DNA of 1,017 bases from the NCBI GenBank assembly GCA_000004985.1, contig GG739615.1; one strand, 5' to 3'. Below, one piece after another: positions 1-1,017 of the stretch (its first letter is position 1; each line of letters opens with the position of its first letter). The notes under the pieces are model-generated. The model did no database searches. It had not been told where the DNA came from and saw nothing but the letters and a program-made list of their open reading frames with translations. This DNA comes from Naegleria gruberi. Taxonomy: Eukaryota. The position numbers were made by a program, and so were the translations under genes.

Positions 1-161
1 ATTTATATTTTCATTTAATTGATTTAAATTTGAATTTAAATTATTTATATTTAAATTATTAAAAATATTATTTAAATAAATTGTTTGATTAATAAATGGA
101 TAAATTGATTGTAAATATAAATCATTAACATTATCAGCAAATATTTTAACTATATTTCCAC
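1..161 (-). CDS. Probable exon 3, partial, running off the window at position 1. It is an ATG-less open frame encoding (G)GNIVKIFADNVNDLYLQSIYPFINQTIYLNNIFNNLNINNLNSNLNQLNENIN...
   Basis: The minus-strand frame with codon high-ends at 159, 156, ... 3 has no stop across 53 codons. In DNA this AT-rich that is improbable by chance, since TAA, TAG and TGA together would be expected roughly once per 10 codons. The + strand has stops in all three frames. The part at 100-161 has diverse codons (GGT GGA AAT ATA GTT AAA ATA TTT GCT GAT ...), typical of coding sequence. There is no Met, so an upstream splice acceptor is required. Confidence 0.4.
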
Positions 162-246
162 CTATTTTTAGTAATTTATAAATTAATTAAAAAATTAAAA
201 AAATTAAAAATTAAATATTTTTTAATAAAAAAAAATAAAAACAAAC
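162..246 (-). other. Candidate intron 2, 85 nt, GTTTGT...TACTAAAAATAG. The donor is non-consensus, so this is uncertain.
   Basis: Minus-strand sequence 246->162 is GTTTGTTTTTATTTTTTTTTATTAAAAAATATTTAATTTTTAATTTTTTTAATTTTTTAATTAATTTATAAATTACTAAAAATAG. Positions 176-241 are 100% A+T. The track's C-terminal FLFFFIKKYLIFNFFNFLINL uses only F, L, I, K, N and Y, which is exactly what translating pure A/T sequence produces. The only AG in the region (163-162) is preceded by a TACTAA-like branch motif. With the GT at 246-245 it gives a phase-1 junction, G|GT = Gly, that reads straight into the open frame at 1..161. Confidence 0.4.
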
Positions 247-562
247 CCTTTGAAATATCATTTGCAGAATTTAAAAAAGTTTCAAAAGTTTTAGAAATAG
301 TTTCAAATGTTTTTGAAATAACTTGACCACTTCCAATTCCATAAGAAACTGTAAAAATAATTCCAATTAAACTTCCAATTACAATTAAAAATATTAAAAA
401 TGAATAAATTATAATGATAAACATTTGATTACTATTTGTATATTCCTTTTTAGTAGATGATGATCTAACACAACATAATCTTCTAATAATATAAAATATT
501 ACAAATGTTATTGTAATTAAAATACCAATTAATATTATAACTCCGCACATAATAAGTGCGAA
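247..562 (-). CDS. Exon 2. It encodes two transmembrane helices, a cytoplasmic RRLCC loop and a tandem SKTFET repeat. If intron 2 is not used, the CDS instead continues to a TAA at 176-178.
   Basis: The translation is FATIMCGVIILIGILITITFVIFYIIRRLCCVRSSSTKKEYTNSNQMFIIIIYSFLIFLIVIGSLIGIIFTVSYGIGSGQVISKTFETISKTFETFLNSANDISK(G). The two hydrophobic stretches of about 23 and 30 residues map to nt 485..556 and 332..424. Composition stays coding-like down to about 247. From 241 down to 176 the + strand contains no G or C at all. Confidence 0.5.
278..319. repeat. Imperfect 21-bp direct tandem duplication (agtttcaaaagttttagaaat / agtttcaaatgtttttgaaat, 19 of 21 identical) inside exon 2. It encodes the duplicated peptide ISKTFET-ISKTFET.
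   Basis: Read directly from the + strand at 278-298 and 299-319. Each unit contains an inverted repeat of tttcaaa and tttgaaa; the copy in unit 2 (301-318) is perfect, 7 bp with a 4-nt spacer. Confidence 0.6.
544..560. other. GC-rich 5-bp inverted repeat, CGCAC-N7-GTGCG. In the mRNA this hairpin would sit just 3' of the intron-1 acceptor and enclose the ATG that the ORF track picked.
   Basis: On the + strand cgcac is at 544-548 and gtgcg at 556-560, with loop ataataa between them. It is the only GC-rich palindrome in an otherwise roughly 80% A+T window. Confidence 0.3.
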
Positions 563-629
563 CTATTGTAATCATTTAAATATATTATTAAATATTTACT
601 ATTTAAGTAATAATAAAAATAAAACATAC
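563..629 (-). other. Intron 1, 67 nt, GTATGT...ACAATAG on the minus strand. Spliceosomal and dictyostelid-type.
   Basis: Minus-strand sequence 629->563 is GTATGTTTTATTTTTATTATTACTTAAATAGTAAATATTTAATAATATATTTAAATGATTACAATAG. Removing it joins codon TAT (632-630) to TTC (562-560), which is exactly the frame of ORF 176..550. The open frame of that ORF in fact begins at 562 (F-A-T-I-M...), immediately after the TAG of the acceptor. A 52-bp gap between two same-strand ORFs is too short for a terminator plus a promoter. Confidence 0.55.
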
Positions 630-1001
630 ATATGAATATCTAACCCAAGAACATAAATCTAAATTATTTGGAGTTTCACTTTGAACAGATTTAAAATCAC
701 AATTTTTAAACCAATCTTGCCAAGTAGAGACATCACCATTATTATTAGTATTATTATTTGATGATGATTGTTGAATAGTAGTATAATAATCCAATGATGA
801 TGTTAATAATTCCATACTTGAAATAAATAAATTATTAGTAAATTCATGATAATGATGATGGAAAGATGATGATGAAATTAATTGATTTTCATATTGTTGT
901 TCTTCATGACCATTAGTGAATGTTATTGTTAATAATACTAATACTACTACTAATAACAATAAAACAGTCAATGATATTCTTGATAATGTTGGTGATATCA
1001 T
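630..1001 (-). CDS. Exon 1 of a minus-strand gene. It encodes a signal peptide plus a low-complexity ectodomain of 124 aa (MISPTLSR...SWVRYSY) and ends in phase 0 at a GTATGT donor.
   Basis: ATG is at 999-1001 (cat on +). The N-terminus MISPTLSR-ISLTVLLLLVVVLVLLTITF-TNG has the n-region, h-region and small-residue cleavage site of a classic signal peptide. The frame is open down to 630, and the next minus-strand bases (629-624) read GTATGT. The 8 residues VCFIFIIT that the ORF track adds (606-629) come from roughly 90% A+T sequence and look like intron read-through. Codon usage is Dictyostelium-like. Confidence 0.6.
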
Positions 1002-1017
1002 TGTGTGGTTGAATGGT

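Follow-up and report, generated by a model that had tools for sequence, protein, structure and literature searches.

The question raised by this locus is whether the minus-strand open frame at the left edge of the DNA analyzed here, a stretch of 1,017 nt with approximately 19% GC that we refer to as the window, belongs to the same gene as the 2 ORFs listed for it. The minus strand of the window contains 3 long stop-free stretches, all in different frames, of 137 codons (positions 1016..606), 128 codons (562..179), and 62 codons (186..1). The frame at the left edge (minus-strand frame 0) encodes the peptide GGNIVKIFADNVNDLYLQSIYPFINQTIYLNNIFNNLNINNLNSNLNQLNENIN, which lacks a Met residue and ends at the window edge. 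These features, and the peptide itself, had been described correctly in the original prediction, as we verified by re-reading the frame. The frame of 53 stop-free codons that it reported is also real, but the complete run is longer (62 codons, starting at position 186): the 53 codons lie 3' of an AG acceptor at 163-162 and are preceded by bases 161-160, the last 2 of a split Gly codon, while positions 186..162 (the first 8 codons of the 62 and base 1 of the ninth) are intron sequence.

The probability of finding such a frame by chance was estimated from 5,000 dinucleotide-preserving shuffles in which all 6 frames were scored. For region 1-186, 0.08% of the 5,000 shuffles contained a run of 62 codons or more; the figures were 1.7% for a run as long as the observed one in region 1-246 and 1.6% for a run of 53 codons or more in region 1-161. 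The base composition gives a stop probability of 0.115 per codon, and hence p = 0.0015 for a stop-free run of 53 codons in a single fixed frame. The earlier statement that the open frame is improbable by chance therefore holds, with shuffle p values of 0.0008 to 0.017. Moreover, the G/C bases of 161..1 are distributed unevenly over the codon positions (11, 7, and 0 at positions 1, 2, and 3, respectively; 18/18 at positions 1 and 2), and with random placement the absence of all 18 from position 3 has a probability of (2/3)^18, approximately 7e-4. The same pattern occurs in the 2 upstream exons described below, in which G/C at position 3 is just 7% to 9%. The overall GC content of 161..1 is 11%, near the composition of the introns, which counts against a coding reading. 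On the plus strand, a stop-free frame of 58 codons rich in Lys, Ile, Leu, and Phe was observed at approximately 150-323, antisense to intron 2 and exon 2; this frame is probably a by-product of the composition and of the opposite coding strand.

The 3 minus-strand stretches can be joined in a single splice model, 1001..630 + 562..247 + 161..1, of 849 nt and 283 codons with zero stops, in which 2 GT-AG introns of 67 and 85 nt are removed. The introns have a GC content of 5% to 10% and the exons of 11% to 24%. Exon 1 (630..1001, minus strand; 372 nt, 124 codons) begins with an ATG at 1001-999, and its 3' boundary, after ...VRYSY, is in phase 0. The encoded residues 9-27 (nt approximately 977-921) form a hydrophobic stretch that resembles a signal peptide, as identified by hydropathy; they are followed by a weakly conserved His/Asn-rich ectodomain and, 3' of this ectodomain, by the conserved motif W..W...CD....PNN.D.C.W..Y. 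The start codon was assigned at 1001 only because the signal-peptide-like stretch comes after it. Upstream of this ATG, the minus-strand frame stays open to the window edge (1002-1017, PFNHT-M), and the GC content of this 16-nt flank (44%) is unusually high for this DNA. The region between the signal peptide and the Cys motif (minus strand, approximately 920-735, residues 28-90) contains the His-rich sequence FHHHYHEF and the Asn-rich sequence SSSNNNTNNNG, and no counterpart of these His- and Asn-rich stretches was found among the homologues.

Intron 1 (563..629, minus strand; 67 nt, 10% GC) reads GTATGT...ACAATAG and is followed by exon 2 (247..562, minus strand; 316 nt), whose last base, the G of a divided Gly codon, leaves the frame in phase 1. 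Hydropathy analysis places membrane helix 1 at nt approximately 559-485 and membrane helix 2 at nt approximately 427-359 of this exon, with a short Cys-rich loop between them (RRLCCVRSSSTKKEY); the first large loop begins in its 3' part (YGIGSGQVISKTFETISKTFETFLNSANDISK). Exon 2 also contains a 21-nt tandem duplication (274-294 and 295-315, minus strand; 86% identical) through which ISKTFET is encoded twice. Homologues show a looser heptad-like pattern in this region (ISTTFNTISMTIDQ), and a repeat scan of the window detected, besides this duplication, just AT-rich chance matches. Intron 2 (162..246, minus strand; 85 nt, 4.7% GC) reads GTTTGT...AAAATAG; it obeys the GT-AG rule and the frame is restored across its junction, 247|161, where a Gly codon is divided G|GT in the context ...TCA AAG G|GT GGA AAT. 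Exon 3, which is partial (1..161, minus strand), starts at position 161, where the G|GT re-forms Gly, and is open to the window edge. Its product, (G)GNIVKIFADNVNDLYLQSIYPFINQT...NENIN, carries one N-glycosylation sequon, NQT, at protein residue 254.

Intron 2 carries an in-frame TAA (178-176) that terminates the listed 124-aa ORF, and the C-terminal tails of the listed ORFs, ...VCFIFIIT and ...LFLFFFIKKYLIFNFFNFLINL, each ending at a stop codon, are read-through intron sequence. Exact look-up of the 2 listed ORF products in protein collections gave no match. A scan of the window for bacterial promoters and terminators produced only background-level signals, which are irrelevant to a eukaryotic gene.

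An exhaustive phmmer search with the spliced window protein against 1.84 billion representative proteins detected 4 relatives. The strongest match, P0001 (915 aa; E 1.4e-43, 42% identity over query residues 83-280), is the Naegleria lovaniensis protein XP_044546481 (C9374_007358, UniRef100_A0AA88GKK2), for which "Prominin" is UniRef's source name. The other 3 are metagenome proteins: P0002 (198 aa; E 1.2e-23, 43% identity over query residues 157-281), P0003 (852 aa; E 1.4e-10, 30% identity over query residues 101-241), and P0004 (817 aa; E 1.2e-07, 29% identity over query residues 105-235). Because the 247|161 junction corresponds to residue 230, the alignments with P0001 and P0002 span this junction, and they cover nearly the whole exon-3 part. 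Multiple alignments were gap-free at both junctions (for example, SANDISKGGNIVKIFADNVNDLYLQSIYPFINQT against SAKDITGGTGIVKVFAQNINQLFKDNIYPLLNST), and the identity to the homologues was 41% to 43% in the exon-3 part and 43% to 45% in exons 1 and 2. When the exon-3 peptide alone was used in BLASTP, it matched residues 185-235 of P0001 (E 7e-10) and residues 77-129 of P0002 (E 4e-12), both at the expected collinear place. The claim of the original prediction that 161..1 is a coding exon is supported. When the raw window was searched by tblastn with the homologues, 3 collinear matches in 3 different minus frames were obtained (716..636, 499..245, and 162..79). The last 27 or so codons of exon 3 encode an Asn/Leu-rich low-complexity sequence of a kind that AT-rich non-coding DNA could also yield, and only the Leu/Ile spacing of this Asn-rich tail agrees with the homologues. 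Because of this agreement, the coding region most likely reaches the window edge.

Other searches added little to this set of relatives. A word-indexed protein search with the spliced protein gave no match; with P0001 as the query, the same type of search recovered nothing beyond P0001 itself and a C-terminal fragment from N. fowleri, and with the family alignment it recovered only P0003 and P0008, probably because low-complexity words swamp the candidate list. No identical or >50% identical protein was present among approximately 15 billion sequences, sequence searches of the PDB with the window protein and with the family profile gave nothing meaningful, and a 30-mer of the window DNA had no exact match in collections of metagenomes, prokaryote genomes, or viruses. 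When metagenomes were scanned by pattern and by tblastn with the family alignment, no sequence continuing past position 1 was found. The close relatives (42% to 44% identity) are Naegleria or Naegleria-like. The dictyostelid affiliation suggested earlier for this gene was not supported, since no dictyostelid or other amoebozoan protein was present among the 4 phmmer relatives from the 1.84 billion representatives. An AT-rich heterolobosean is known, Willaertia magna, which has a GC content of 25% (PMC6892926), and a protist of this kind is a candidate source; a heterolobosean origin of the gene is no less likely than a dictyostelid one. A less probable reading is that the gene stems from a very AT-rich relative of Willaertia or Naegleria, or from some other protist, whose proteins are absent from public collections. 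If the source were a dictyostelid after all, the gene would be a Naegleria-like prominin lacking a detectable counterpart in the sequenced Amoebozoa, which would point to lateral transfer or to a very patchy distribution.

Compared with the N. lovaniensis protein and with P0002, which is encoded by the metagenome contig L001, the window protein is 42% to 44% identical over approximately 190 collinear residues and presents the same order of motifs: CD...PNN.D.C.W..Y, helix 1, RR.C..C, helix 2, YG.GSG.VI..TF.TIS, and SA.DI..G..IV..F. It differs from them in having a longer, unrelated His/Asn-rich N-terminal stretch and in often having Asn in place of their polar residues, and the GC content of the window is 19% versus 35% to 37% in the N. 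lovaniensis gene and L001. The window is not from the same species as either, as no exact match to its DNA or protein was found in the collections searched.

The relatives also permit a comparison of the splice junctions at the DNA level. The N. lovaniensis gene model, which we rebuilt exactly from the DNA (L002), consists of 4 exons, of which exon 2 has 313 nt (316 nt in the window) and exon 3 has 471 nt. Its intron 1 follows WISYLY and that of the window follows VRYSY, both in phase 0. Its intron 2 is in phase 1 (...ATT ACA G|GT GGT ACT) and splits the same Gly codon as in the window. Matching codons and phases show that the positions and phases of both window introns are conserved in N. lovaniensis. 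Contig L001 (37.5% GC) has intron 1 at the same position as the window, and in nt 336-821 the equivalents of exons 2 and 3 form a single unbroken frame without intron 2. This continuous frame directly shows that the exon-2 and exon-3 peptides belong together. The upstream connection at 247|161 proposed in the original prediction was therefore corroborated by an in-frame and gap-free alignment, by the same intron in N. lovaniensis, and by the absence of any intron at this site in L001. As regards the introns themselves, intron 1 is common to the window, N. lovaniensis, and L001, and intron 2 is common to the window and N. lovaniensis and is not found in L001 (regions compared: L001 149-335 and 336-821; L002 1738-1867 and 2181-2386). 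This distribution reflects the loss or gain of an intron inside a small clade.

Taken with these comparisons, 3 other readings of 161..1 have to be weighed. The first accepts exon 3 as real but has it begin 12 nt later, at an AG at 151-150 with position 149 as the first base, either as the sole form or as an alternative isoform. This acceptor (ATATAG|TT) is also in frame, because G + TT forms a Val codon, and its product would read ...DISK-V-KIFADN..., without GGNI. However, these 4 residues are kept in the homologues (GGTGIVKVFA in P0001 and NGVNIVQKFS in P0002), only the acceptor upstream of 161 gives a gap-free alignment, and the N. lovaniensis intron splits the same G|GT codon. Use of the 151-150 acceptor would thus delete residues conserved among the homologues; we rejected it in favor of the start at 161 and consider it highly improbable. 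Even less probable is a gene fragment or a pseudogene in decay, in which similarity is left but no full-length protein is expressed. The window shows just the first third of the gene, as such a reading would allow, and an in-frame stop or a disabling mutation could lie past position 1, but the 283 codons distributed over 3 exons contain no stop and no frameshift, the splice sites are intact, the codon-position periodicity has been kept, and conservation is even across the exons. The least probable reading is that exon 2 is read through without intron 2 to the TAA at 178-176, leaving 1..161 as 3' UTR or intergenic DNA whose open frame arose by chance from the biased composition: the 11% GC of 1..161, which resembles that of non-coding DNA in such genomes, the low complexity of the peptide tail, and the chance p of 0.016 to 0.017 when only 1-161 or 1-246 is shuffled, which is small but not negligible, would be compatible with it, but the homologues contain nothing that corresponds to the read-through tail LFLFFFIKKYLIFNFFNFLINL, 2 of them continue with 51 to 53 residues that match the frame-shifted peptide starting at 161 (E 7e-10 and 4e-12), intron 2 agrees with that of the N. 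lovaniensis gene in position and phase, and 161..1 has zero G/C at codon position 3, and we rejected it because its tail lacks homology.

Minus-strand 161..1 is thus very probably the start of a third coding exon of a nuclear protein-coding gene of a very AT-rich protist. For this exon we observe an open frame, coding periodicity, in-frame GT-AG junctions, homology across the junction, and conserved intron position and phase. The exon is an ordinary one, and the gene, of a known family, is captured only in part. According to this model, the primary transcript would begin 5' of the ATG at 1001 and 2 short GT-AG spliceosomal introns (629..563 and 246..162) would be excised, resulting in an mRNA composed of 1001..630, 562..247, and 161..1 that would continue onward past the window. 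We infer that the gene is actually spliced and expressed in this way. The parts encoded in the window would be, in order, a signal peptide, a small N-terminal ectodomain, helix 1, a Cys-rich cytoplasmic loop, helix 2, and the first 90 or so residues of the first large extracellular loop, of which exon 3 would contribute approximately residues 230-283. Homology likewise suggests that exon 3 encodes part of this predicted loop.

The full-length relatives have 789 to 915 aa, and therefore the window contains approximately the first third of the gene and about two thirds of it lie past position 1. The proposal that the gene exceeds both listed ORFs and goes on past position 1 agrees with this size range. 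By analogy, exon 3 would run for approximately 300 nt more past position 1 and would be followed by further exons, giving a protein of approximately 800 to 900 aa in total. Hydropathy analysis of P0001, P0003, and P0004 detected 5 membrane helices in a 2+2+1 pattern and 2 large loops of approximately 220 and 340 aa with 10 to 17 N-glycosylation sequons. Of this topology, the window covers the signal peptide, the first 2 helices, and the beginning of loop 1, and the product of the window gene would be expected to have the full 2+2+1 arrangement.

Several features of this family point to the prominins. A Cys-rich stretch after membrane helix 1 is typical of prominins, and metazoan prominins (PROM1/CD133, PF05478) resemble the family described here in having this stretch directly after helix 1, in being of the same size as the full-length relatives (789 to 915 aa), and in combining, as P0001, P0003, and P0004 do, 5 helices in a 2+2+1 pattern with 2 large N-glycosylated loops. 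Sequence similarity to them is marginal, and only P0004 approaches the Pfam threshold. This protein matched the Pfam Prominin profile (PF05478) with an E value of 2.2e-8 and 33.1 bits, 1.2 below the gathering score of 34.3. The match is in register (protein residues 92-219 against profile positions 93-219) and takes in the counterpart of the first 30 or so residues of exon 3. No match of the window protein to the Prominin profile was obtained even when E values up to 10 were allowed, and neither P0001, P0003, P0007, nor P0008 gave a match to it. The window protein reaches no Pfam threshold; its best relevant match is Tweety (PF04906; E 0.18, 10.9 bits), a weak signal that spans the hairpin formed by helices 1 and 2. 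TTYH proteins have 5 membrane helices in the same arrangement, but the loops of the relatives (approximately 220 and 340 aa) are prominin-sized, unlike the extracellular loops of Ttyh proteins, which have approximately 120 aa (PMC11405016). Membership in the Tweety family was rejected because the 10.9 bits compare with a threshold of 31.8 and the loops of the full-length relatives are too long. An AlphaFold2 model of P0001, built from a 5-sequence alignment, had a mean pLDDT of 34.6 and a pTM of 0.26, too poor for fold comparison.

Bell et al. 2024 defined prominins by a five-helix 2+2+1 topology together with homology to metazoan prominins (PMC11405016). This topology comprises 2 small intracellular and 2 large extracellular loops, and in the prominin/TTYH-like fold the membrane helices are prolonged into a long extracellular helical bundle (PMC11405016). 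A further criterion is a near-invariant Trp in membrane helix 5 (W795 in the human protein; PMC11405016), a helix that in our gene lies beyond the window. Putative prominins have been described in fungi, excavates, SAR, and plants (Bell et al. 2024, PMC11405016), and it has been argued that Ttyh proteins are distant prominin homologues, with both kinds of protein bending membranes (PMC11405016). Considering the topology, the in-register match of P0004, and the criteria of Bell et al., the best description of the product of the window gene is a predicted prominin-like membrane glycoprotein with 5 membrane helices.

The chief value of correcting this locus is for annotation: the bacterial-style ORF listing turned one eukaryotic gene into 2 false ORFs (132 and 124 aa) with spurious intron-derived C-terminal tails and overlooked the third exon altogether. 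The correction also reveals that 2 intron positions are conserved between an extremely AT-rich protist gene and Naegleria (N. lovaniensis). Furthermore, it provides one further putative non-metazoan member of the prominin/Tweety superfamily, whose product, by analogy with prominins, may organize or bend the plasma membrane.
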